Below are positions 97 through 58,402 of a stretch of DNA of 64,000 nt, piece after piece. Each line of letters starts with the position of its first letter. The stretch's first letter is position 1. The notes below the pieces were generated by a model. It saw nothing but the letters and a program-made list of their open reading frames with translations. It made no database searches and was not told where the DNA came from. The translations under genes and the position numbers were made by a program. The stretch is from a bacterium (GTDB taxonomy: Bacteria; Patescibacteriota; Patescibacteriia; UBA10025), in NCBI GenBank assembly GCA_021815445.1, contig JAKAGM010000001.1, positions 531,710 through 595,709 on the forward strand, written 5' to 3'.

Positions 97-1239
97 CTAG
101 CCTTCTATATCCTCTCCCCGCAAATCAGCTAGCTCTTTGAGCAGATCTTTTTCGCGCCTTGAGAGCTGTGCGGGAGTTTCCACCTGCACGGTCACGAGAT
201 GGTCTCCGCGCCCGCGTTTGCGCAGGTGGGTTACACCCTTCCCGTCCAGGCGAAATACTTTGCCCGACTGTGTCCCGTGAGGAATTTTGAGGATTACTTC
301 GCCGTCGAGCGTTTCAATGTGCACCTTAGTGCCAAGCGCCGCCTGTGAGAAGCCGACGGAAACGTCAGAATAGATGTCGTCCCCTTCCCGCCTGAAGTTC
401 GGATCGTTCGGTACTTTGATGCGGACAAAAAGGTCACCGGCCTCGGCTCCCCTGACCCCGGCGGCTCCCTTTCCCGACAGGCGGAGAGATTCCCCGTCGC
501 TGATGCCCGCGGGAATTTTTACGCTTATGGTCTCTTGGCCTGTCGTGCGCCCTTCGCCGTGGCAGACCGTGCATTTCTTCGAAGCTTTGCGCCCTTCGCC
601 GTGGCACTCAGGGCAGACTCCCATTTGTCTGAGGGCGCCGAAGAATGTCTGCTGGATATTTTGCACCTGTCCGCTGCCGCCGCATGTGGCGCACGAGACT
701 ATCTTTGCCCCGGGGTCGGCTCCGCTGCCGCCGCACCGCTTGCAGGTGATTTCTTTTTCTAGGGTGAGAACTTTGTCGGTACCAAAGGCCGCCTCATGCA
801 AAGATACGGTTACGGATATCTCGGCGTCATTGCCGCGGCGCACCTCACTTCGCGCCCGGCCTCTCGACCCGCCCATGCCGAAGATATCGCCGAAAATGTC
901 TCCGAGATCGCCGAAATCAAAATTGGCATTCTCGGTCCTAAACCCCCCGAACGGTCCTCCCCCGCGCGCAAAGTCCTCGGCAGAAAATCCGCCGAATCCG
1001 CCCGGGCCGCCGCCCTGTCGCCGCGCCTGGTCAAATGTCTGCCCGAACTGGTCGTACTGCTGGCGCTTCTCCTTGTTGCTTAGGGTTTGGTAGGCCTCGT
1101 TAATTTCTTTGAACTTTTCCTCGTCGCCGCCGTCCTTGTCAGGATGATGCTCATGCGCAAGCTTGCGAAACGCTTTTTTGATGTCAGCTTCGCTCGCGTC
1201 CTTCGGCACGCCTAAAATGTTATAAAAATCTTTTGCCAT
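97..1239 (-). CDS. dnaJ: Molecular chaperone DnaJ
   Basis: N-terminal J domain with HPD motif (HEHHPDK), Gly/Phe-rich linker, four CxxCxGxG zinc-finger repeats, C-terminal substrate domain. Confidence 0.9.
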   Translation of the reverse strand: MAKDFYNILGVPKDASEADIKKAFRKLAHEHHPDKDGGDEEKFKEINEAYQTLSNKEKRQQYDQFGQTFDQARRQGGGPGGFGGFSAEDFARGGGPFGGFRTENANFDFGDLGDIFGDIFGMGGSRGRARSEVRRGNDAEISVTVSLHEAAFGTDKVLTLEKEITCKRCGGSGADPGAKIVSCATCGGSGQVQNIQQTFFGALRQMGVCPECHGEGRKASKKCTVCHGEGRTTGQETISVKIPAGISDGESLRLSGKGAAGVRGAEAGDLFVRIKVPNDPNFRREGDDIYSDVSVGFSQAALGTKVHIETLDGEVILKIPHGTQSGKVFRLDGKGVTHLRKRGRGDHLVTVQVETPAQLSRREKDLLKELADLRGEDIEG

Positions 1240-1297: not shown

Positions 1298-2350
1298 CTA
1301 GAGTTCGAGGCGCTCCTTGCTGATCATGACTTTGCCGATGCGGACAAATCTGAACGCAGAAAGGACGCGGTAGACGATAAAAGAGAAAAACTGGATCAGC
1401 GGCTGATAGACAATATCGAATATTTTAAGCACGAAAAAGAGTGAAAGCGCCAGCACCGCCGGCAAAAACTTTTTGTACGGGGCCACATACTTTTCGAGCT
1501 GCTGGTTCACAATTTTTTCCACGATAACTTCCATCCTGTCAGTCCCCGACGCCGTGATGCCGAAGGTGGAGAGAAACTTCGCGCGGGCTTCGTCGGTCAA
1601 CTGCCCCTGCGCGCTGGCTAATCCTTCCTGGATTGATTTCTCTATTTCGGCGGTTCCCGGAAATCCCAGCGTCGTGGTTACCTGCTGTGAAGGTTGGACT
1701 GTCGACTCCCTGATGAACTCATCAAGCGTCATGTCCGGCGAATAGTGGGCGACATAGCGCGGAAGAACTCTGTCCACGGAAACAACGGCAGTCTTTACGA
1801 TACCGCTGAGGAGCCGCTCCGACTCCTGCCGGGTGATAAGGAAGGAATAATAGGTGAATGACACTGAGAGCAGAATGAGCGAAATGGCTATGCCCAATCC
1901 TGCCGGAATCACTTGGCTGACTTTGAAGCTGATGCGAGTCTCCATATCACTCCGGATATTCTTGCGCCAGAGAATGAAAGCCAAAATCATAGCTATAATG
2001 GCGATCATGTTCGAAAGGCTCACGGGGAAAAAAGCGACATGGCTCAGGGCTCCGACAGCCACGATGACGTAAAAAACCAGACTTCGCTGGATAAGCAATG
2101 CTGTCAGACCCACGACGGCAAACATGAGCGCAAAAGCGAACAGAACGAATGCGAACGTCAGGAGCGTGTCGAGACGGAGCGAAAATCCCTCGCCGCTCTG
2201 GAAAATCCTGAAAAACGTAAACCAGAAAAATGCCATCGATGTCACTGTCAGCGCGCTGAGAATGGTAAGTTTATGCAACGGTTGCGGGACCGGTTTTTCT
2301 TTTTGGGCTTGGAGCGCCTGCTCTTCCTGCGTAGGTTTTTCAATTCGCAT
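1298..2350 (-). CDS. Hypothetical integral membrane protein
   Basis: 350 aa ORF with multiple hydrophobic helices at both ends and a soluble central segment; no recognised family. Confidence 0.55.
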   Translation of the reverse strand: MRIEKPTQEEQALQAQKEKPVPQPLHKLTILSALTVTSMAFFWFTFFRIFQSGEGFSLRLDTLLTFAFVLFAFALMFAVVGLTALLIQRSLVFYVIVAVGALSHVAFFPVSLSNMIAIIAMILAFILWRKNIRSDMETRISFKVSQVIPAGLGIAISLILLSVSFTYYSFLITRQESERLLSGIVKTAVVSVDRVLPRYVAHYSPDMTLDEFIRESTVQPSQQVTTTLGFPGTAEIEKSIQEGLASAQGQLTDEARAKFLSTFGITASGTDRMEVIVEKIVNQQLEKYVAPYKKFLPAVLALSLFFVLKIFDIVYQPLIQFFSFIVYRVLSAFRFVRIGKVMISKERLEL

Positions 2351-2548
2351 AAGGATATGTTACTCAGTGTACCATCGCGTCCACCATCAGACAATCATGC
2401 GCAGATCGCATGTTTACCGATTTCTGATTTTGGCAACGTTCTTCCCGATCGGAACAGGTGTGATATCAAACTTCTCTCTATTTAATCAGGTTTATAGGGA
2501 CTTTCTTGAAGCTAGGGAAGTTATTCCCAGCTTATCCACTCTGCGGTC

Positions 2549-2577
2549 TTGACCGGTTTTTCCAGTAAGAGTAGCAT
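2549..2577 (+). promoter_or_regulatory. Sigma70-like promoter (TTGACC-17nt-TAGCAT) in front of a GC-rich non-coding stretch
   Basis: Hexamers read directly, 17 nt spacer; no convincing ORF downstream. Confidence 0.35.
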
Positions 2578-3068
2578 GCTCATTACGTCTTTACGTTCTT
2601 TCCATTCCACGAACTTTGTCGGTGACTATTACCGGCTCGATGCTCACAATGGATGGGGGTGAGAGACTTCTCTCGATCAAACTCTCCGTGAGTTATGACG
2701 CGACAACGTCGCACCCTTTCAAGTCGGAACACCTCGGAAACTTTGACGTTTCCGTGACTCAGGTAGTCGGACCTTTATATGGGAGGCCTGACTGCTGGAA
2801 CATTTCCGGCGTCATCTACTGAGCTCGAGAAAGCGCGATTGCATTTGATGCGGGGATTTGGCCGGGAGGAATCCAGGCCGCAGCCTCCGTGCTGACCCCC
2901 AAGGACCTTACGGTCCGCCCTTGCCCATTGCGGGCAACTGTACCCATCGCCCCAGGGCGATGATATCTGCACTTTGCGCCAGGTTTCCCGACACGGCCCC
3001 AAGATCCTTTGATGACACACCTCCTCATTGAATCGCGGGGCTGTTTTTCTTTGGGTGAAAAAACGCTC

Positions 3069-3096
3069 TTGACTTCATCTGACAGGGCATTATACT
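3069..3096 (+). promoter_or_regulatory. Sigma70-like promoter (TTGACT-16nt-TATACT) for a candidate small RNA
   Basis: Near-consensus -35 and -10 hexamers; about 165 nt downstream is a strong intrinsic terminator. Confidence 0.5.
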
Positions 3097-3102
3097 ATCG
3101 AC

Positions 3103-3271
3103 GTGTTCTTCGGATACTACCCGGCTGGGCAATGAATTCGGGGATTCATCCCACCCGGCGCTACGCGCAATGCTTCTCCGCTTACAAGGAAGGCGAGGAC
3201 GACCAGAGTCCAAAACGGAGTTGCGCACGTAGCAGGGCTCGGCAAATGATACTGCGCCGAGCCTGTTTTTT
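3103..3271 (+). ncRNA. Candidate small non-coding RNA, about 170 nt, identity unknown
   Basis: Bounded by promoter 3069-3096 and terminator 3237-3271; no ORF with an RBS fits inside; convergent with DUF3467 gene. Confidence 0.35.
3237..3271 (+). terminator. Rho-independent terminator (GCTCGGC...GCCGAGC stem plus T6)
   Basis: Perfect 7 bp GC-rich stem followed by TGTTTTTT. Confidence 0.6.
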
Positions 3272-3279
3272 ATATCCCG

Positions 3280-3585
3280 TTATCCGTGGAACCCGATCTC
3301 ACTATTCATCGGGGCCTTTGCGACCTCGATGGTCCCGAAGTTCTTTTCATATTTCTCTATATTATCTTTGAGCGCGCCGAGGACCCGCTTCATATGGCCC
3401 GGCGAGAGGATCACCCGCGCATTGACGATGCCCGCGCGCTGGAGCGGATAGACATTCATAAAATCGAGGACGAATTCCTCCTTGGAATGCGCCACTGACA
3501 TCATGTTCGCATAGATGCCTTTCATCGTGGCGTCGTCTATCTTAATTTGTATCTGCTGCCCTTCGGGGGCTTGCTGTCCGTTCAT
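3280..3585 (-). CDS. DUF3467 family protein
   Basis: About 100 aa; conserved EFVLDF...ILSP.H.KR...AL..N..KYE..FG core typical of DUF3467. Confidence 0.75.
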   Translation of the reverse strand: MNGQQAPEGQQIQIKIDDATMKGIYANMMSVAHSKEEFVLDFMNVYPLQRAGIVNARVILSPGHMKRVLGALKDNIEKYEKNFGTIEVAKAPMNSEIGFHG

Positions 3586-3702
3586 AGTGCGTTGGGATTA
3601 GTGGATAAATGTTAATAATAAACTGCATATTGACATTGGCACCTCATATGCGTAAGCTGTGGTTAATAACATCGCACAAACAGGGAAACGAGGAGGAAGT
3701 CC

Positions 3703-3942
3703 ATGAGGATTTTCATTACAGATGTTGAGGTGTTGGGGACAGAGTTGATAGTCCGCTCAAATTTACGGAGATGGGCGTATCATCTCTCAGACGTCATTTC
3801 CGGCGTGCTTTCTATCGAAGAGATCGTCGAGGATAGCGAGTCCGAGGAATTGATCGTCACGGCAGATGGCGTTAAACTCCGTCTCTATACTTGGAGACAG
3901 GCTGCCCTCGGCGAACGGTCCAAATCCTGCCTCGCCGCGTAG
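3703..3942 (+). CDS. Hypothetical small protein (79 aa)
   Basis: AGGAGGA RBS 7 nt upstream of ATG; followed by terminator at 3973-4004. Confidence 0.5.
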   Translation: MRIFITDVEVLGTELIVRSNLRRWAYHLSDVISGVLSIEEIVEDSESEELIVTADGVKLRLYTWRQAALGERSKSCLAA

Positions 3943-3972
3943 GTCTGACCGACTAACGCAATGTTCCTGCCC

Positions 3973-4004
3973 CCTGCCGCCCCGTTTGACGGCAGGTTTT
4001 TTTA
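3973..4004 (+). terminator. Rho-independent terminator (CCTGCCG...CGGCAGG plus T8)
   Basis: 7 bp stem followed by TTTTTTTT. Confidence 0.6.
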
Positions 4005-4111
4005 TTCATGAGCGCTTGCACATCTTAGTAGTACATGGTAAAGATGACAATGAGTATACGTTAAACGAAAGTAATGCACAATTGTTCTGTCACATGCGGA
4101 GGGAGGGAAGT

Positions 4112-4183
4112 ATGCGGTTCGAGATAGCAAATTGGTGCTTTGATAACACCCGCGGAATTGTCCTTTTGCATCTGAGGGCCTGA
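4112..4183 (+). CDS. Putative 23 aa peptide with strong RBS (MRFEIANWCFDNTRGIVLLHLRA)
   Basis: GGAGGGAGGGAAG directly upstream of ATG; weak terminator-like hairpin plus T-tract follows. Confidence 0.2.
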   Translation: MRFEIANWCFDNTRGIVLLHLRA

Positions 4184-4243
4184 TTAAGCTTTACGGTCAT
4201 TCCAGGCCCCCGGCACACGCTGACGGGTCTTTTCTTTTTTGCA

Positions 4244-4278
4244 TTGACAAAGAGCAAACAACTGCTAGACTGGCGATA
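4244..4278 (+). promoter_or_regulatory. Sigma70-like promoter (TTGACA-17nt-TAGACT) for the small membrane protein gene
   Basis: Hexamers read directly. Confidence 0.4.
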
Positions 4279-4331
4279 TCTGTTAAGAATTGATGAGGAA
4301 TATAATTGCTCATTCGAGGAGGGGTACTAAA

Positions 4332-4493
4332 ATGGAAACGTTCAAATCGTGGCCTGGATGGGCACAGGCGCTGACGGTTATCGTCGGCATCATTCTCGTC
4401 CTGGCTGCGGTGGGCTATCGCTTCATCGAGCTGATGAAACAGATTCCGTCCGAATCAAAGGACGAATCGGCGCAGAGCTCTGCACGAACCTGA
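4332..4493 (+). CDS. Small membrane protein (53 aa, single TM helix)
   Basis: GAGGAGGGG RBS upstream of METFKSW; hydrophobic helix ALTVIVGIILVLAAVGY; ORF track start at 4290 is probably too early. Confidence 0.45.
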   Translation: METFKSWPGWAQALTVIVGIILVLAAVGYRFIELMKQIPSESKDESAQSSART

Positions 4494-4622
4494 TCTTCAT
4501 CGGTCATTCATCCAGATCGCTGACTCCGCACGATACAACTATGTGGAGTCTTTTCTTATAGTGGTAACCCTGTAGGGGTCAAGCAAGCTTGACCCGATTT
4601 TCTAAAAGTCGAAGCTTTGCCC

Positions 4623-4904
4623 CTACTTCTTTCTCGGCCCGCGATACAGGACTTTAAACTTCAACCGGCTCACGTTCTGGTTCTTTTTCGCCTTTGAACC
4701 ATGTGCGCCGATCGCCCACACGTTAATACCCGCTTTGCCTTTTTTCTCGTCTGTGGACGTGACTGCCACGTCGAATTCAACGAACGAACTTGATGATTTG
4801 CTGTCTGTCGTTATCCAAAAGAGATGATTGCCGGCCTTGTTGGCCGCCTCAATACCCTTGGCAATGTTTGTTAATGTCGTGGTGATAAATTGGTCGAGTT
4901 GCAT
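4623..4904 (-). CDS. Hypothetical protein with trypco2-like (trypsin-co-occurring domain 2) signature
   Basis: 93 aa; VEFDVAVTxT...GKAGINVWAIGA...RLKFKV pattern resembles the trypco2 domain seen in conflict systems; preceded by conserved hairpin-pair leader. Confidence 0.5.
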   Translation of the reverse strand: MQLDQFITTTLTNIAKGIEAANKAGNHLFWITTDSKSSSSFVEFDVAVTSTDEKKGKAGINVWAIGAHGSKAKKNQNVSRLKFKVLYRGPRKK

Positions 4905-4919
4905 AATATTCTAGCTTTC

Positions 4920-4968
4920 GCACCCTAGAGAGGGTGCTCTCCTTGTCATGCCGAACTTGATTCGGCAT
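4920..4968. repeat. Hairpin-pair motif copy A (GCACCC-N6-GGGTGC and ATGCCGAA-CTTGA-TTCGGCAT)
   Basis: Perfect inverted repeats read directly; lies in the 5' leader of the minus-strand gene 4623-4904. Confidence 0.7.
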
Positions 4969-4980
4969 CTTTATCAAGCT

Positions 4981-5178
4981 TTAGTTTCCTAGGAACTTCA
5001 AAGCGCCATAGACCAGGAATATCGGCCAGATGATTGCCTTAAGGAATCCAAGCACACCCGCCCAAAAAGTCGCTGCCACGGAAATATAATAAATCGCGGC
5101 GCCGATGAAACCTAACCCATAGACCGCCTCTCCGCCACGCTTTGTAACATTCACGTCCATCATATATGCCATGTACAT
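4981..5178 (-). CDS. Small hydrophobic membrane protein (65 aa)
   Basis: Two predicted TM helices; tightly packed between island genes. Confidence 0.4.
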   Translation of the reverse strand: MYMAYMMDVNVTKRGGEAVYGLGFIGAAIYYISVAATFWAGVLGFLKAIIWPIFLVYGALKFLGN

Positions 5179-5202
5179 TTAATAATTAGCCTTGTCATGC
5201 CC

Positions 5203-5715
5203 TCATTTTACCCTCCCGAGAAAGTAATCATCAATAGCCCGCACGAGCGCCACGGGTTTGGCGTCGAACGACCATTCTTTCTTTTCCCGCTTGGCGTCGT
5301 TCTCGAGTATTAATTGGAACCTGTTCGACTTGGTGAGGATGCATTTCGGCGGAGTGGCGTGAAAATGCCACGGCGTGCCATCTTGGACGAACTGTTTCAC
5401 CATCTCAAGCGCTTCATGGTCAGCTGGCCCGAAATCCCCCTGTGCCTGCAAGTATGCGCGTCCTTCAAGCTCCTCGCGGAGTTCTTTCGTACTCCGGCAG
5501 TAGATATTCCCCTGCGGCGTCTCAAGCAAAATAATCTCCTTGCCGGTGTCATTCATGAAGCATTCGGGCGAAAGGCAATGATGATGCCACGCCGTGCCCA
5601 TGCGGACGGTCCTTTGCTCAGCGTCGTCGTATTCTACGTATTTTGCGTCTTCGGATATCATATATTCTGTACTTTCTTTCGCACCCTCGAAAGAGTGCTC
5701 TTCTTTATCCACCAT
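5203..5715 (-). CDS. Hypothetical protein with duplicated G-T-x-W-H-x-H ... C motif (WHH-like); likely true start at 5661
   Basis: Internal repeat GTAWHHHCLSPEC and GTPWHFHATPPKC; the first 18 codons overlap a conserved leader hairpin, so the ATG at 5661 is favoured. Confidence 0.5.
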   Translation of the reverse strand: MVDKEEHSFEGAKESTEYMISEDAKYVEYDDAEQRTVRMGTAWHHHCLSPECFMNDTGKEIILLETPQGNIYCRSTKELREELEGRAYLQAQGDFGPADHEALEMVKQFVQDGTPWHFHATPPKCILTKSNRFQLILENDAKREKKEWSFDAKPVALVRAIDDYFLGRVK

Positions 5716-5798
5716 CCTGAACTTGATTCAGGATCCCGAATTAAATACCTTGGCAGATTACCTCGGGATGCCGAATCAAGTTCGGCATGGGGACAGCT
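5681..5798. repeat. Hairpin-pair motif copy B (GCACCC hairpin, CCTGAA-CTTGA-TTCAGG, ATGCCGAA-TCAAG-TTCGGCAT)
   Basis: Inverted repeats read directly; same stems as copy A. Confidence 0.7.
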
Positions 5799-5839
5799 AA
5801 TTATCTCCGAGCGTGGCCCGCCGCGGCCGCGCTCGCCTG

Positions 5840-6286
5840 TTAAAGTCCCAGTACTTTCTCCAATATCGGATGTGAAAAATACGCCAGTACATCAAAGTCC
5901 TTATCTGCCAATTCAATCATTTCATGGCCCGGCCGTTCAATAAGTTTGAACCCCGGCTTGTCGAGGTATGCTTTCTTAAACGCCGGGTAATCACTCACCG
6001 TGAAGTCCGCGTCTCCTCGCTCTGGCCGGTTCGGATCCGGTTTCCGTATTTTTACAATTCGCAACGGCCCGGCAACGGTTTCAAACGACTCAACGAGATA
6101 CACGTTACCCATTTTGGTACTCTGAATAACCTTGCCTATTTTCGCAACCATCGCTTCGAGCCTTTGATACTCATCATCTGATTGAGAAAAAATACAGGCA
6201 TAATTCACCGGCGCGTTTTTCTGGTCCGTGTGGAGGTCCTTGAGCTTGCGCGCTTGGGAAACAATGTTCTGTACAATTGAAATCAT
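5840..6286 (-). CDS. Hypothetical protein (148 aa), immediately downstream of SIR2-like gene
   Basis: ORF with ordinary composition; no recognised family. Confidence 0.5.
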   Translation of the reverse strand: MISIVQNIVSQARKLKDLHTDQKNAPVNYACIFSQSDDEYQRLEAMVAKIGKVIQSTKMGNVYLVESFETVAGPLRIVKIRKPDPNRPERGDADFTVSDYPAFKKAYLDKPGFKLIERPGHEMIELADKDFDVLAYFSHPILEKVLGL

Positions 6287-6357
6287 GTTTTTCGTGTTCT
6301 TTCTTTGAATGTTGTATCCTCAGATATCATATGGTTGTTGTTGGGGCATATTTACTT

Positions 6358-7449
6358 TCAAATTTTATTGTAATTTTCTACAAATGTTTTAAAACCATTT
6401 TTAAAAGATGTATTCGATGGATCGAAGAATACCTTCCCTTTTTGGAGTTTTTTTGGATGTCGTTTAATCACTCTTTCCATTATTTCTGTTGCGCCTTCAA
6501 CACTATTGCTCACCACGTGGAGTATCGGGGGTTTCGAGGTTGTATACTTTTCTATCCAGTCATGTATTAGCTCATCATTTGCTTGATAGCCAATCAAGAA
6601 TATCTGACTAACATTTGGAAAGAGTGTTTTAGCTCCCTCTTCTATTTTTTTACCTAACTCGGGAATATGTGAATAAATTTTTTCGGATAGTGGGAGAAAT
6701 ATTAACGGCTGGAAGTAATCCCATCCAAAATCTTGGGAATATATTGAGTCTCGCTTTTGTAAAAAGTTATGACCAGGATCGTAATATTTATAATCAGTTA
6801 GAGCCAGCCCACTACCCTTAAATAGATTAACTGAGGCAAACCGATATCTATTTTGCCAGTCATTATCGGCGCTTTTACCTGGAATGCCACCATCTTCTTG
6901 TCTTTTCTGACCGAGCCAGTTAACTGATCCGTGCGGCTTTAGTATTTTTTGCGTTATGTATGAATCGACATTGTCTAATGGCCTGCTCCAAACTTTAGTA
7001 AAAGCAATATCAAACAGGGTGTCATAATTAAAATTAATGAACGCATGGTGAATGTCTTTCTGCGTTTCTTCGCGAAGTATTATTAAGAGCTTTTTATAAA
7101 GGCTATTATTCCCTGGATGTGTCGAAATCGTTTGAAACATCCAACGTAAGTAATGTGCAAACTTTCCAAGGTCGCCTCTGAGAGAGATCGCGGCCTCCGC
7201 GGTATATCCCTCTCCACCTTGATTTGAGTACTTCCATAATTCACTTAGCCAATCTTCTAAACTACGATCTTTTTTGGTTCTTTCAAATGTGGCACGAAGG
7301 TAGTTAATATCAAGGCTAAGCTCCTCGGCATATTCTTCATAAACAGAATTTAATAATTCATTTGCAAGAGGGGCCTGATATTTATTGTTATCTACATTTT
7401 TATTTGTAGATCCTCTAGAGGCACCCGCACCGAAGATAAAGAGTTTCAT
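6358..7449 (-). CDS. SIR2-like domain protein (SIR2_2 / defence-associated sirtuin family), putative NAD+-consuming effector
   Basis: N-terminal FIFGAGASRG Rossmann motif, NYDTLFD (catalytic Asn) and KPHGSVNW (catalytic His), third strand IFLIGYQANDE; gene is AT-rich (about 38% GC) against 50-55% surroundings. Confidence 0.8.
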   Translation of the reverse strand: MKLFIFGAGASRGSTNKNVDNNKYQAPLANELLNSVYEEYAEELSLDINYLRATFERTKKDRSLEDWLSELWKYSNQGGEGYTAEAAISLRGDLGKFAHYLRWMFQTISTHPGNNSLYKKLLIILREETQKDIHHAFINFNYDTLFDIAFTKVWSRPLDNVDSYITQKILKPHGSVNWLGQKRQEDGGIPGKSADNDWQNRYRFASVNLFKGSGLALTDYKYYDPGHNFLQKRDSIYSQDFGWDYFQPLIFLPLSEKIYSHIPELGKKIEEGAKTLFPNVSQIFLIGYQANDELIHDWIEKYTTSKPPILHVVSNSVEGATEIMERVIKRHPKKLQKGKVFFDPSNTSFKNGFKTFVENYNKI

Positions 7450-7492
7450 AATTACTACCGCCCCCGAGTTTTCCCGGAGGCGTTTTAATTAC

Positions 7493-9424
7493 CTATTTAC
7501 TTTTCGCAGACCCTGAGGTTCCTGAAGGGTTGACCTCCTCATACTGGGCGTCCACGGGTCCCTTGTCATCCTTTTTCTGCTCTGCTCCTTTTGCCTGGCC
7601 TTGGGGACTGCCTTGAGGGGGCTGCTGGCCCTGGTACATCGCCTGGCCTATCTTCTGGATAGCCTGTGAGAGTTCGTCGTGGGCCTTCTTTATTGCCGCG
7701 GCATCGTCGCCGTCTTTCACTTTTTTGAGCGCATCAATCTTTTCTTGCACCTCTTTCTTGGTCTTGTCGTCTACTTTGCTTCCGGCGTCTTTGAGTGACT
7801 TCTCGGACGTATAGACGAGGGATTCTGCCATGTTGCGCATATCAATTGTCTCTTTCTTTTTCTTGTCATCTACGGCGTGCGCCGCGGCTTCCTGCTTCAT
7901 CTTTTCCACTTCGTCTTTTGACAAGCCTGAGGACGCGGTGATAGTGATGGACTGTTCTTTGCTTGTGGCCTTGTCTTTCGCTTTCACATTCAGTATGCCG
8001 TTCGCGTCAATGTCGAAGCTGACCTCTACCTGCGGCACTCCACGGGGCGCCGGCGGAATGCCCGAGAGCATAAACCGTCCGAGCGACTTGTTGTCACCTG
8101 CCATGGGGCGTTCGCCCTGCAGGACGTGGATTTCCACTGACGTCTGGTTGTCCGCGGCTGTGGAGAATACTTGCGACTTGGATGTCGGGATAGTGGTGTT
8201 GCGGTCAATCAACGGTGTCATAACACTGCCGAGCGTCTCTAACCCTAGCGTGAGCGGCGTGACATCAAGCAAGAGAATGTCTTTTACATCTCCTTGAAGA
8301 ACGCCCGCTTGGACAGCCGCGCCGACTGCAACTACTTCGTCAGGATTCACGCCGAGGTGCGGTTTCCTGCCAAAGAACTTCTCGACTGTCTGTTGAACTA
8401 AGGGCATACGAGTCATACCGCCGACCATAACTACTTCCTGGATGTCGGACGTCTTGAGTCCTGCGTCATCCAGCGCTTTTTGCGTCGGGCCCATGGTCTT
8501 TTGCACCAGGTCCCCTACCAGATCTTCCAACTTAGCGCGGGACATCTTGAGGAGCAAGTGCTTCGGTCCTGATGCGTCAGAGGTGATGAACGGCTGGTTG
8601 ATTTCAGTTTCCATCTGCGTCGAGAGCTCCATCTTTGCCTTTTCAGCTGACTCCTTGAGACGCTGTAAGGCGAGCTCATCCTTGCTGAGGTCGATGCCTT
8701 GATCCTTTTTGAACTCTTCAGCAATCCAATGAATAATCACCTGGTCAAAGTCATCACCGCCCAAGTGCGTGTCGCCGTTGGTCGCTTTGACTTCCACCGT
8801 GTCTTTTGAAACTTCGAGGATGGAAATGTCGAATGTACCGCCGCCGAGGTCGTAGACGGCTATCTTTTCATCCTTTTTCTTGTCGAAACCGTAGGCAAGC
8901 GCCGCCGCTGTCGGCTCGTTGATGATGCGGCGGACTTTGAGACCGGCGATTTCACCGGCGTCTTTCGTCGCCTGGCGCTGTGAGTCGTCGAAATACGCGG
9001 GGACAGTGATGACAGCTTCTTCGATCTTTTCGCCGAGCTTGTCCTCTGCGTCAGCTTTGAGCTTCGAGAGCACCATCGCAGAGATTTCCTGCGGCGAGTA
9101 TTCCTTGCCGCCCATCTCTACTTTGACGCCCTGCCCCGACTGGACCATCTTGTAGGGCATGAGCTTGAGGTCTCGCTGAACCTCGGCGTCGTCGAAGCGT
9201 CGTCCGATCAGGCGCTTCACTGAAAAAATAGTGTTCTTTGGGTTGACGACGGCCTGGCGCTTGGCCGACATGCCGACGATGCGTTCTCCTGTCTTGGAGA
9301 CGGCGACGACTGACGGAGTCGTCCTGTTGCCGTCTTTGTTTTCGATGACCTTCGGTTCGCCGCCCTCCATGACTGCCATGGCTGAGTTGGTCGTACCGAG
9401 GTCTATTCCGAGAATTTTTGACAT
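7493..9424 (-). CDS. dnaK: Molecular chaperone DnaK (Hsp70)
   Basis: [16 protein letters not shown] and other Hsp70 signatures; 643 aa. Confidence 0.95.
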
Positions 9425-16537: not shown

Positions 16538-16584
16538 TATGTTATTACTCTCCAGCGTAGGCAGCTGCGCCTGCGCTGCGTTTT

Positions 16585-17721
16585 TTATATTTTCCCCCTC
16601 CTAATCCCCTCCCGTATCTTCGCCACGAACGCATTGAAGAAAGACAGGTTATGGAACGTCAATAAACGCAGGGGTGTCATTTCTTTTGCCCGCAGTAAAT
16701 GGGTAATGTAACCTCGTGAATATGTTTGGCACACTTCGCACGCGCAACGAGGGTCAAGCGGTTTCCTGTCGCTTAAAAAAATATTTTTGCGCATATCCAG
16801 CTGTCCCGCCGACGTGAAGGCAACACCGTGCCGTGCAAAGTGCGTAGGGACGATGCAATCGAACGTGTCCACGCCCGCTTGAATGATGTTTGGGATATCC
16901 TCGAGGTAGCCGATGCCAAGTAAATGCCGCGGTTTGTTTTCCGGCAATGCCGCCGTCACCCAGCGAATCATCCGTACCATCGTCGCTTTGTCACTGCCGA
17001 ACTCTCCGCCGATCCCGTACCCGGGGAAAGGAAGCGAACCGATATACCGTGCGCTTTGCTCACGCAGGTCTCTGTATCGCCCGCCCTGGACTATGCCGAA
17101 TAGCGCCTGCGCACCCTTGTGAACCCGCAGACACTCTTCCGCCCAGCGGTGGGTGAGCTTCACCGATTTCTTCACATAGGCCTTGCTCGCCACCGGCGGA
17201 GGACATTCATCGAAGGCGAATATGATATCGGCGCCCAGGGCCTCTTGGATGCGCATGGATTCTTTCGGGCCTATGAAAAGCTTTTTGCCGTCGACGACGG
17301 ATCGGAAATGCACTCCTTCCTCGGTAATCTTCAGAAACTTCGGCTGGGCGGCGACATGGACCGACTCGGTATGCCCTTCTTTCAGCTGCTTTCCGATGTT
17401 GAAATCGAACCCAAACCCGAGACTGAACACTTGAAAACCGCCGGAATCGGTCATTATGGGCCTATCCCAGTGCATAAACCGGTTCAACCCGCCGTGCCGC
17501 TTCACAACCTTTTCGCCCGGCTTCAAGTGCAAGTGATAGGTGTTTGCGATCACGACCTGGCTTCCGGTCCTTTGTACCTCCTCACCTGTCAGCGTCTTGA
17601 CGACTGCCTGCGTGGCAACGGGAACAAGGGCGGGGGTCTCAATGACTCCGTGCGGCGTATGCAACAATCCCGCGCGCGCTCGGCTTTTTTGAGACTTCTT
17701 TTGAACGGTAAATTTAAACAT
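16585..17721 (-). CDS. tgt: Queuine tRNA-ribosyltransferase
   Basis: TGT signatures incl. zinc site CxCxxC...H and GIGY/DxFDC motifs. Confidence 0.9.
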   Translation of the reverse strand: MFKFTVQKKSQKSRARAGLLHTPHGVIETPALVPVATQAVVKTLTGEEVQRTGSQVVIANTYHLHLKPGEKVVKRHGGLNRFMHWDRPIMTDSGGFQVFSLGFGFDFNIGKQLKEGHTESVHVAAQPKFLKITEEGVHFRSVVDGKKLFIGPKESMRIQEALGADIIFAFDECPPPVASKAYVKKSVKLTHRWAEECLRVHKGAQALFGIVQGGRYRDLREQSARYIGSLPFPGYGIGGEFGSDKATMVRMIRWVTAALPENKPRHLLGIGYLEDIPNIIQAGVDTFDCIVPTHFARHGVAFTSAGQLDMRKNIFLSDRKPLDPRCACEVCQTYSRGYITHLLRAKEMTPLRLLTFHNLSFFNAFVAKIREGIRRGKI

Positions 17722-56806: not shown

Positions 56807-57157
56807 CTACATCTTAATCTCGACATCGACGCCCGCGGGAAGATTGAGATTCATCAGCGCATCGACTGTTTTGGGCGTCGGCTCCAAAATATCTATCAGC
56901 CGTTTGTGGATCCTCATTTCGTACTGTTCCCGGGAATCTTTATGGACGAACGTCGAGCGGTTGACGAGGTACTTGGTTTTTTCGGTGGGAAGCGGAACGG
57001 GGCCCTTGATGTGCGCCCCTGACCGTACAGCGGTATCGAGAATAGTCCGCGTCGACTGGTCGATAATCTTATTGTCGTAGGCGCGAATCTTGATACGTAT
57101 CCTGCTTGAGCCGCTCGGCTCTTCTTCCTTTGTCTTCGGGTTATCGTGTTCTGCCAT
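56807..57157 (-). CDS. rpsJ: 30S ribosomal protein S10
   Basis: [10 protein letters not shown] ... S10 core. Confidence 0.9.
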
Positions 57158-57217
57158 GTACCTTGTGAGAAAGAAAGTCCCCCCTACCCGTGAAAGGATG
57201 TGGAGGAATTCCCTTTT

Positions 57218-58402
57218 TTATTTGATTATCTTTGTGACGGCTCCTGCACCGACGGTGTGGCCGCCCTCTCGGATGGCGAAACGCTGCTGTTCTTGGAGTG
57301 CGACTGGAACAATGAGCTTGATATTGAGCTTGAGCGTATCTCCGGGCATGACCATTTCAGTCTTTTCAGGGAGGATAACTTCTCCGGTCACATCAGTGGT
57401 TCGGATGTAGAATTGGGGCTTGTAGCCCTTGAAAAACGGAGTGTGCCGGCCGCCTTCTTCTTTGGTAAGGATATATACTTGGGCCTCAAATTCTGTATGA
57501 GGGGTAATAGTTCCCGGCTTCGCGAGCACCTGTCCCCTTTCGACATCTTCTTTCTTAGTGCCACGGAGGAGCAGCCCTGCGTTATCGCCGGCCCGTCCTT
57601 CGTCCAACTGCTTATTGAACATTTCTATTCCGGTAATGACAGTCTTGCTCGTATCATGGATACCGACAATTTCCACTTCATCGTTGAGCTTGACAGTACC
57701 CCGCTCGATACGGCCGGTAACAACGGTACCGCGGCCCTCGATCGAGAAAATGTCTTCGATGGGCATGAGGAACGGCTTGTCGACTTCGCGTTTCGGCTCA
57801 GGGATGTATTCATCAAGCTTCTTGACCAGTTCGAGAATTGATTTCTTGGCTTCTTCGTCTCCCTCGAGCGCTTTCAGCGCGGATCCTTTGATAATCGGAA
57901 TTTCATCTCCCGGATATTCGTACTTTTTGAGCAGATCGCGAATCTCGACTTCGACAAGGTCGATAAGCTCTTTGTCATCAACCATGTCAATCTTGTTGAG
58001 AAAAACAACGATATACGGAACACCGACCTGGCGTGCGAGAAGGATATGCTCTCGAGTCTGAGGCATAGGACCGTCTGCTGCGGACACGACAAGGATGGCG
58101 CCATCCATCTGCGCGGCGCCGGTAATCATATTTTTTACATAGTCGGCATGACCGGGACAATCGACGTGGGCATAATGACGCTTGTCGGTTTCATACTCGA
58201 CATGCGCTGTTGCGATAGTAATACCGCGTTCGCGCTCTTCGGGAGCGTTGTCAATCTGGTCAACTGATTTATCTTGCGCTTTATATCCGGCGTCTTTTAA
58301 CGTCTTAAGAATTGCAGCGGTGAGAGTCGTTTTCCCGTGGTCAACATGACCGATGGTACCAACGTTCACGTGCGGTTTTGATCTGTCGAATTTCTCTGCC
58401 AT
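57218..58402 (-). CDS. tuf: Elongation factor Tu
   Basis: [15 protein letters not shown], NKxD motifs. Confidence 0.95.

Follow-up and report, generated by a model that had tools for sequence, protein, structure and literature searches.

A promoter- and terminator-bounded candidate non-coding RNA gene of about 170 nt, convergent with DUF3467 in a Patescibacteria genome

Described RNA systems and the DUF3467–dnaJ locus

Tandem sRNA arrays such as PrrF1/PrrF2, OmrA/OmrB, and Qrr consist of paralogues with clear sequence similarity. 6S RNA (RF00013) is defined by its rod-like shape, which includes a closing stem and a large central bubble, and convergent genes may share one bidirectional terminator hairpin between them. 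The unit under study here (U2, ~170 nt) and a larger unit directly upstream of it (U1) were compared to these systems, as well as to trans-encoded sRNAs and to the OLE, GOLLD, ROOL, and raiA RNAs, all of which are in Rfam. U2, whose host is a Patescibacteria MAG, resembles trans-encoded sRNAs in its intergenic site, near-consensus promoter, predicted Rho-independent terminator, length, and 5' stem-loop, and in having no ORF. It differs from them in that it was assigned to no family and exhibits neither a conserved single-stranded seed nor target complementarity above chance. Like the members of the PrrF, Omr, and Qrr arrays, U1 and U2 are adjacent, have separate promoters and terminators, and are joined in a terminator-then-promoter arrangement; unlike them, U1 and U2 are mutually unalignable and the units differ between genomes.

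With 6S RNA, U2 shares the size class, strong structure, and the absence of an ORF, whereas the lack of a model match, the four domains, and the missing closing stem and central bubble set it apart. The similarity to bidirectional terminators lies in the single hairpin between convergent units, which overlaps the stop-codon region, and in sister lineages this hairpin separates DUF3467 from a convergent protein gene. The window and most relatives differ, as the T-run is found on one side only, opposite DUF3467. U1 and the longer units of relatives (370–670 nt) are similar to OLE, GOLLD, ROOL, and raiA in that they are strongly structured with multiple branches, have a promoter of their own, and are restricted to a lineage, but neither U1 nor the relatives' units match these models, and U2 is much smaller. 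Promoter- and terminator-bounded sRNAs are ordinary as a class, and U2 fits no family; taken by itself, U2 looks like an ordinary sRNA candidate that lacks conservation, and its individual weight is therefore modest. A literature search on regulatory RNAs and sRNAs in Patescibacteria and on DUF3467 returned nothing relevant. From its sequence, U2 is a plausible lineage-specific candidate non-coding RNA gene of no known family.

In the window, which denotes the whole 64-kb stretch of DNA that was analyzed, a gene-free gap of ~930 nt (2351–3279) separates the DUF3467 gene from the membrane-protein/dnaJ pair, and gene callers leave it empty. The features of this region are summarized in Table 1. 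The first-pass annotation had described a candidate sRNA here and overlooked the conserved non-coding U1 directly upstream. The order of DUF3467, gap, 350-aa membrane protein, and dnaJ was kept in 37 fetched loci, with gaps ranging from 48 to 1793 nt.

Table 1. Features of the DUF3467–dnaJ gap and related sites in the window
Feature	Position	Strand	Basis or remark
dnaJ	97–1239		follows the membrane-protein gene
Membrane-protein gene, 350 aa	1298–2350	−	bounds the gap on the far side
Conserved box TTATCCACT	2532–2540	+	upstream of the U1 promoter; resembles a DnaA box
U1 promoter TTGACC-17-TAGCAT	2549–2577	+	promoter scan
U1, structured non-coding unit, ~465 nt	~2584–3052	+	conservation with L164
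U1 terminator	hairpin 2993–3044, T-run 3045–3052	+	also conserved in L164
U2 −35 hexamer TTGACT	3069–3074	+	sequence, promoter scan
U2 −10 hexamer TATACT	3091–3096	+	16-nt spacer from −35
U2 transcript, ~170 nt (predicted)	~3103–3271	+	start site inferred
U2 fold domains	5' hairpin 3103–3117; hairpin 2 3121–3158; three-way domain 3160–3233; terminator	+	predicted
U2 terminator hairpin	5' arm GGGCTCGGC 3235–3243; loop 3244–3255; 3' arm GCCGAGCCT 3256–3264	+	
U2 T-run	G3265, then T6 at 3266–3271	+	sequence
DUF3467 gene	3280–3585	−	Pfam PF11950, E = 5e-25
Gene-end motif sites	7460–7493, 16553–16587, ~57150–57218, 3235–3282	genes on −	

An 877-kb metagenome contig from ENA and a small number of further contigs encode an identical DUF3467 protein. 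The closest GTDB representatives were Patescibacteria/Parcubacteria MAGs with DUF3467 identities of ≤76%, and no DUF3467 closer than ~80% was detected in JGI metagenomes and a collection of 5.8 billion proteins. Given this lack of close DUF3467 relatives, the species is poorly sampled. The AlphaFold2 model of DUF3467 (pLDDT 77) consists of three beta-strands packed on a long helix. A Foldseek search of the model against the PDB gave nothing below E = 0.09, and no sequence-detectable relatives with a solved structure were found (best E = 0.97). DUF3467 was considered as an RNA-binding partner, but the searches yielded no lead, and the model gave no sign of an RNA-binding fold.

On the far side of the gap, a promoter-like TTGTCT-17-TACACT precedes the membrane-protein gene (2366–2394, minus strand), with the −10 hexamer ending 15 nt before the ATG. 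Similar promoter-like sites lie even nearer to the membrane-protein start in the related loci L167 and L169. This suggests that the membrane-protein/dnaJ pair may have its own promoter and give rise to very short or leaderless mRNAs. dnaK and dnaJ are ~6 kb apart, with variable small genes in between (window 3600–7450). Among them, a Trypco2-domain protein is encoded at 4623–4904, and a 363-aa protein with weak similarity to SIR2 (PADLOC SIR2 E = 1e-5; Pfam SIR2_2 below cut-off) is encoded in a low-GC island (0.31–0.39 at 6.2–7.4 kb). In relatives, the dnaK–dnaJ interval contains HD_4, Trypco2, and Y1 transposase. The interval looks like a variable, possibly defense-related island.

Signals, coding capacity, and fold of U2 and U1

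The two promoter hexamers of U2 (TTGACT-16-TATACT) match the sigma-70 consensus at 10 of 12 positions in a consensus scan, and the site is, by this match, a putative sigma-70-type promoter. The terminator stem comprises 9 bp, the outermost pair being G·U, and its 12-nt loop is longer than typical. The hairpin was assigned −16.7 kcal/mol in a scan permitting longer loops; the consensus terminator scan did not list it because loops of ≤8 nt only are permitted there. With its G+C-rich hairpin and T-run, the 3' end has the form of a predicted intrinsic (Rho-independent) terminator. Both elements, which the first-pass annotation had placed ~165 nt apart, are thus present where they had been located, with the terminator ~170 nt downstream of the promoter, and a start near 3101–3103 would give an RNA of 166–171 nt. 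The stop codon of DUF3467 (TAA, minus strand) is found at 3280–3282, 8 nt past the T-run; the convergent arrangement proposed earlier was confirmed, as the minus-strand gene ends at 3280, just beyond the T-run.

The −35 hexamer of U2 sits 16 nt past the T-run of U1, and this terminator-then-promoter junction resembles the tandem-unit junctions in the related loci L163, L168, and L169. Promoter-like sites are frequent: seven were counted in 1500–5000, compared to 3.4 ± 2.2 in shuffles, and 27 with at least 10/12 matches in the whole window, both strands combined. Strict hairpin+T5 terminators are rare, with nine in the 64-kb window. U2 is the only pair of a promoter (≥10/12) and a terminator 60–700 nt apart in 64 kb; a naive estimate of the chance expectation is 0.3–1 such pair per window. 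As promoter-like sites are frequent, the pair alone is suggestive, not decisive.

No ORF of ≥12 aa with a Shine-Dalgarno-like motif was found within U2 or U1, in agreement with the earlier observation that no RBS-preceded ORF fits inside U2. The sole ATG frame in U2 opens at 3133 and runs through the terminator, with no stop before 3371. Pfam gave no match for any gap ORF in any frame. A type I toxin-antitoxin RNA, which would call for a small, usually hydrophobic ORF with an RBS and an overlapping antisense RNA, was not supported, since neither unit contains a Shine-Dalgarno-preceded ORF of ≥12 aa.

Rfam 15 at gathering score returned only two tRNAs over the window, both distant from U2, and ARAGORN found two tRNAs only, both far from U2, and no tmRNA. 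At E ≤ 10 over 2400–3700, there was no plus-strand match and one chance-level minus-strand match outside U2, and at E ≤ 1 no family beyond chance level was detected in eight related loci. The remaining matches in all scans were at chance level (snR71, E = 6; BjrC68, E = 0.8 on a terminator). U2 was therefore not assigned to any known family by the Rfam scan, and the failure to recognize SRP, tmRNA, or RNase P signatures by eye was reproduced by Rfam and ARAGORN. The suggestion that U2 could be 6S-like did not hold. No RF00013 match was obtained at E ≤ 10, and the MFE and centroid folds both give four independent hairpin domains, not a rod, so that an identity as 6S RNA was rejected. An identity as a riboswitch or 5' leader was likewise excluded because no plus-strand gene lies downstream of U2, only the end of the convergent DUF3467.

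The whole U2 transcript (3103–3271) has an MFE of −65.8 kcal/mol (z = −3.0). Without the terminator, the body reaches z = −1.8 on the plus strand, where 10 of 200 shuffles were equally stable, and z = −2.95 on the minus strand, which is the more stable one. The predicted plus-strand structure of the body is thus weak and barely above shuffles. Target complementarity of U2 to the translation start regions of window genes was not above shuffles for the best match.

The segment 2484–3052 of the window, which contains U1, has ~75% nucleotide identity to L164, the closest relative, in which DUF3467 is 80% and the membrane protein only 44% identical to the proteins of the window. Searches of the gap against 165 fetched loci (blastn, nhmmer) found U1 to be common only to L164. 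Mismatches between the two sequences are spread evenly over the codon phases (50/56/49) and most indels have lengths not divisible by three, which indicates that U1 is conserved as non-coding sequence. Both promoter hexamers of U1 are identical in L164 and L163, with a spacer that varies. U1 is strongly structured (MFE z = −4.6), and RNAalifold on the two sequences (window and L164) predicts 88 pairs, 17 of them with both sides changed. The RNAalifold energies are nearly equal by strand (−79.5 vs. −77.5 for the reverse), so the strand assignment of U1 rests on its promoter and terminator. A covariance model built from the 5' domain of U1 (window and L164) recovered no further members in 27 loci, and U1 and U2 were not alignable with each other. 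Arguably, U1 is the better RNA-gene candidate of the two.

Upstream of the U1 promoter, the box TTATCCACT is present in the window, L164, L163, and L169, and as a variant in L168. In U1-type promoters of several genomes, a box TTATCCAC(T/A) lies 9–22 nt upstream of the −35 hexamer; the TTATCCAC box is probably a regulator site. In our reading, CTTGAAG-N15-CCCAGCTTA (2506–2541) resembles a sigma-32-type promoter. A replication origin at the U1 box was considered and rejected: the DnaA-like boxes are not clustered, and neither a change in gene orientation nor a skew turn was observed.

The same slot in related genomes

Eight loci of the subclade were examined, of which L004, L163, L164, and L165 were retrieved via DUF3467 relatives and L166–L169 via membrane-protein relatives. 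No gene was called in the gap of any subclade locus spanning it. As we read the sequences, each of these gaps appears to hold one to four units composed of a promoter, a G+C-rich body, and a hairpin with T-run, on the strand convergent with DUF3467. In the nine gaps (window plus eight loci), the convergent strand contains 12 promoter-like sites, seven strict terminators, and five promoter-to-terminator pairs, compared to eight, one, and none on the other strand. Dinucleotide shuffles of the nine gaps gave means of 3.8 promoter-like sites, 0.5 terminators, and 0.1 pairs, and none of 60 shuffles reached the observed values. This enrichment on the convergent strand makes a real transcription unit plausible.

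Sixteen promoters from the subclade gaps were aligned; the TTATCCAC box, located upstream, and a start motif, A(C/T)TACG, are common to several of the unit promoters. Each of the 13 delimited units is more stable than its shuffles (z between −2.6 and −11.3); 24 control pieces from the window gave a mean z of +0.17 (sd 1.19). In 10 of the 13 units, z is lower for the convergent strand. Apart from the window/L164 and L166/L167 pairs, the units are mutually unalignable. The minus strand of L163 at 4300–5812 is a 1.5-kb gene-free gap with four tandem units of ~490, 405, 145, and 187 nt, and L168 contains a 669-nt unit with an MFE z of −11.

In more distant relatives (DUF3467 identity 60–72%), the slot is occupied by convergent genes for small proteins (62–227 aa) from several unrelated families, equipped with promoter and terminator. 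One small family is located downstream of DUF3467 in L008, L009, L083, and L089 (and L005, L010, L017, L027, L084). Its members have 62–76 aa or are tandem-doubled to ~120–150 aa, with the motifs NHGxGP and GGHxF...F.KYF; other sister loci encode unrelated slot proteins of 94–227 aa. The content of the slot turns over and the convergent orientation is kept.

For the body of U2, blastn and nhmmer against the 165 fetched loci detected no homologues, only identical contigs. In L164, DUF3467 abuts the U1 terminator and the U2 segment (~170–220 nt) is missing; the first-pass annotation had named homologous regions lacking the promoter/terminator pair as evidence against its sRNA, and L164 is such a region. 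The single match of a single-sequence covariance model of U2 was L004 (E ~0.2–0.7), driven by the terminator. The U2 terminator is homologous to the hairpin adjoining the DUF3467 stop in L004, with arms GCAGGGCTCGGC...GCCGAGCCTGTTTTTT in the window and GCAGAGCTCGAC...GCCGAGCTCGTTTTTT in L004, which include one compensatory exchange of G-C to A-U. A neutral alignment of U2 with L004 retains the terminator only. Nine double changes between U2 and L004 come from a model-fitted alignment of the two sequences and vanish in the neutral alignment. For covariation in relatives, proposed earlier as a check of the fold, the comparison gave one compensatory terminator pair (L004), and for the body no homologue was detected.

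A 13-nt direct repeat (CGGGGCTGTTTTT at 3036–3048 and CGAGCCTGTTTTT at 3258–3270, 222 nt apart) flanks the U2 segment and is formed by the 3' half of the U1 terminator and that of the U2 terminator. With such a repeat, recombination could easily gain or lose U2; recombination between the two copies would delete it and yield the arrangement of L164. A mobile-element or phage origin of the gap was rejected, since blastn gave no match in phage or plasmid collections. Exact matches of the gap in viral contigs were absent, and around U2 no inverted terminal repeats were found, only the 13-nt direct repeat. As judged from these comparisons, the case for U2 itself is weaker than the case at the level of the locus, given its absence in L164 and a terminator as the only part recognizably shared.

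Competing explanations and significance

We see about an even chance that U2 is a stand-alone gene for a structured, ~170-nt non-coding RNA with its own promoter and terminator, acting as RNA. It would be transcribed on the plus strand from its own sigma-70-type promoter, and transcription would end at the hairpin and T6, a few nucleotides short of the DUF3467 stop codon. In a Patescibacteria (Parcubacteria-type) slot with two RNA genes in tandem, U2 would follow U1, and its junction with U1, similar to those in L163, L168, and L169, fits an array architecture. Such an RNA would presumably function in its own right. Protein-binding or structure-dependent regulation would be likelier than the role of a seed-pairing sRNA, because the predicted fold of U2, made up of a 5' hairpin and two internal hairpin domains, leaves few open stretches, and no target complementarity above chance was found at the start regions of window genes. 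A more far-reaching version, which we consider doubtful, is that the slot is a dedicated array of one to four fast-evolving structured RNA genes of an undescribed class, with U2 as the youngest member. The units of this array would have promoter type, TTATCCAC box, and 5' start motif in common and would occupy the position of the small convergent proteins of sister lineages, possibly as a functional replacement of protein by RNA that is linked to the chaperone locus or to the adjacent defense-like island.

Among the alternatives, it seems unlikely that the segment makes no functional RNA at all. The hairpin would then be a 3'-end element of DUF3467, the promoter a chance or decaying site, and the 170 nt leftover spacer, originating, e.g., from duplication or recombination between terminator repeats. 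The ends of other genes bear on this explanation. At dnaK (stop at 7493) and at the genes 16585–17721 and 57218–58402, the TAA stop is followed by an A-run and a G+C hairpin but, on the strand of the gene, by no T-run, and these three, unlike DUF3467, have no convergent partner. Read on the opposite strand, the gene-end hairpins are canonical terminators. An A-run and hairpin after the stop are also found at many DUF3467 genes among the closest loci listed. Either the lineage commonly uses plus-type terminators to stop antisense read-in, or such hairpins form the 3' ends of the genes themselves, and the motif may be shared across the lineage as a gene-end or anti-antisense element. Since it recurs, the hairpin at 3235–3271 need not have evolved for U2 and may belong to DUF3467.

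These gene ends also qualify the earlier claim that the terminator is oriented for the plus strand only. Read on the minus strand, A6 lies before the hairpin and CTGCTACG after it, and a T-run is missing; by the canonical rule, the claim is correct. The similar hairpins that end three genes without a convergent partner lessen the weight of the argument. The spacer explanation is further favored by the missing segment in L164, its position between direct repeats, the plus-strand z of only −1.8 for the body, and the frequency of promoter-like sites. Against it, a 10/12 promoter located 16 nt past the U1 terminator repeats the junctions of L163, L168, and L169, and the promoter/terminator enrichment on the convergent strand of the nine gaps is far above shuffles. 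Moreover, compact CPR genomes seldom retain 200 nt of junk.

It is rather improbable that an RNA is made but that convergent transcription or antisense pairing is what counts. U1 and U2 would in this case oppose or process DUF3467 read-through to the membrane-protein/dnaJ genes, and the hairpin would keep antisense polymerase off DUF3467. DUF3467 indeed lacks a canonical terminator on the strand from which it is read, all units in the nine gaps point against it, and the terminators in reverse orientation at the ends of other genes could act as insulators of this type. Read-through from DUF3467 is, however, not required if the membrane-protein gene has its own promoter near the start codon, as is apparently the case, and the RNA product itself probably matters, given the heavy structure and the conservation of U1.

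We give a low probability to a functional minus strand, i.e., a structured 3' UTR of DUF3467 or a part of a DUF3467-to-dnaJ intercistronic RNA. The better minus-strand fold of the U2 body and the similar RNAalifold energies of U1 on both strands would be in line with this. In the nine gaps, however, the unit promoters and T-runs are on the plus (convergent) strand, the strand preference of the folds favors the convergent strand in most units (10/13), and internal terminator–promoter junctions would be senseless on the minus strand.

A decayed or very small protein gene, such as a slot-protein pseudogene, a micropeptide, or a type I toxin gene, is very improbable. Distant relatives do carry convergent genes of 62–227 aa in the slot, but tblastn of 14 slot proteins against the RNA-type gaps gave nothing better than E = 0.06, and tblastn of an ORF from L011 gave nothing. 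In addition, no RBS-preceded ORF exists, the one ATG frame passes the terminator without a stop, and the Pfam search was empty. A diverged member of a known family (6S, SRP, tmRNA, RNase P, riboswitch, or leader) is extremely improbable: the size of U2 suits 6S RNA and AAGGAAGG vaguely recalls, in our reading, the SRP domain IV motif, but U2 has no Rfam match at E ≤ 10, no tmRNA was found by ARAGORN, the fold is not rod-like, and no plus-strand gene lies downstream.

Patescibacteria have tiny genomes and few regulators. If real, U1 and U2 would be concrete promoter-defined RNA genes in Patescibacteria, and the occurrence of RNA genes in one clade and of small proteins in its sisters would, if true, represent a turnover of a gene slot near dnaK/dnaJ.
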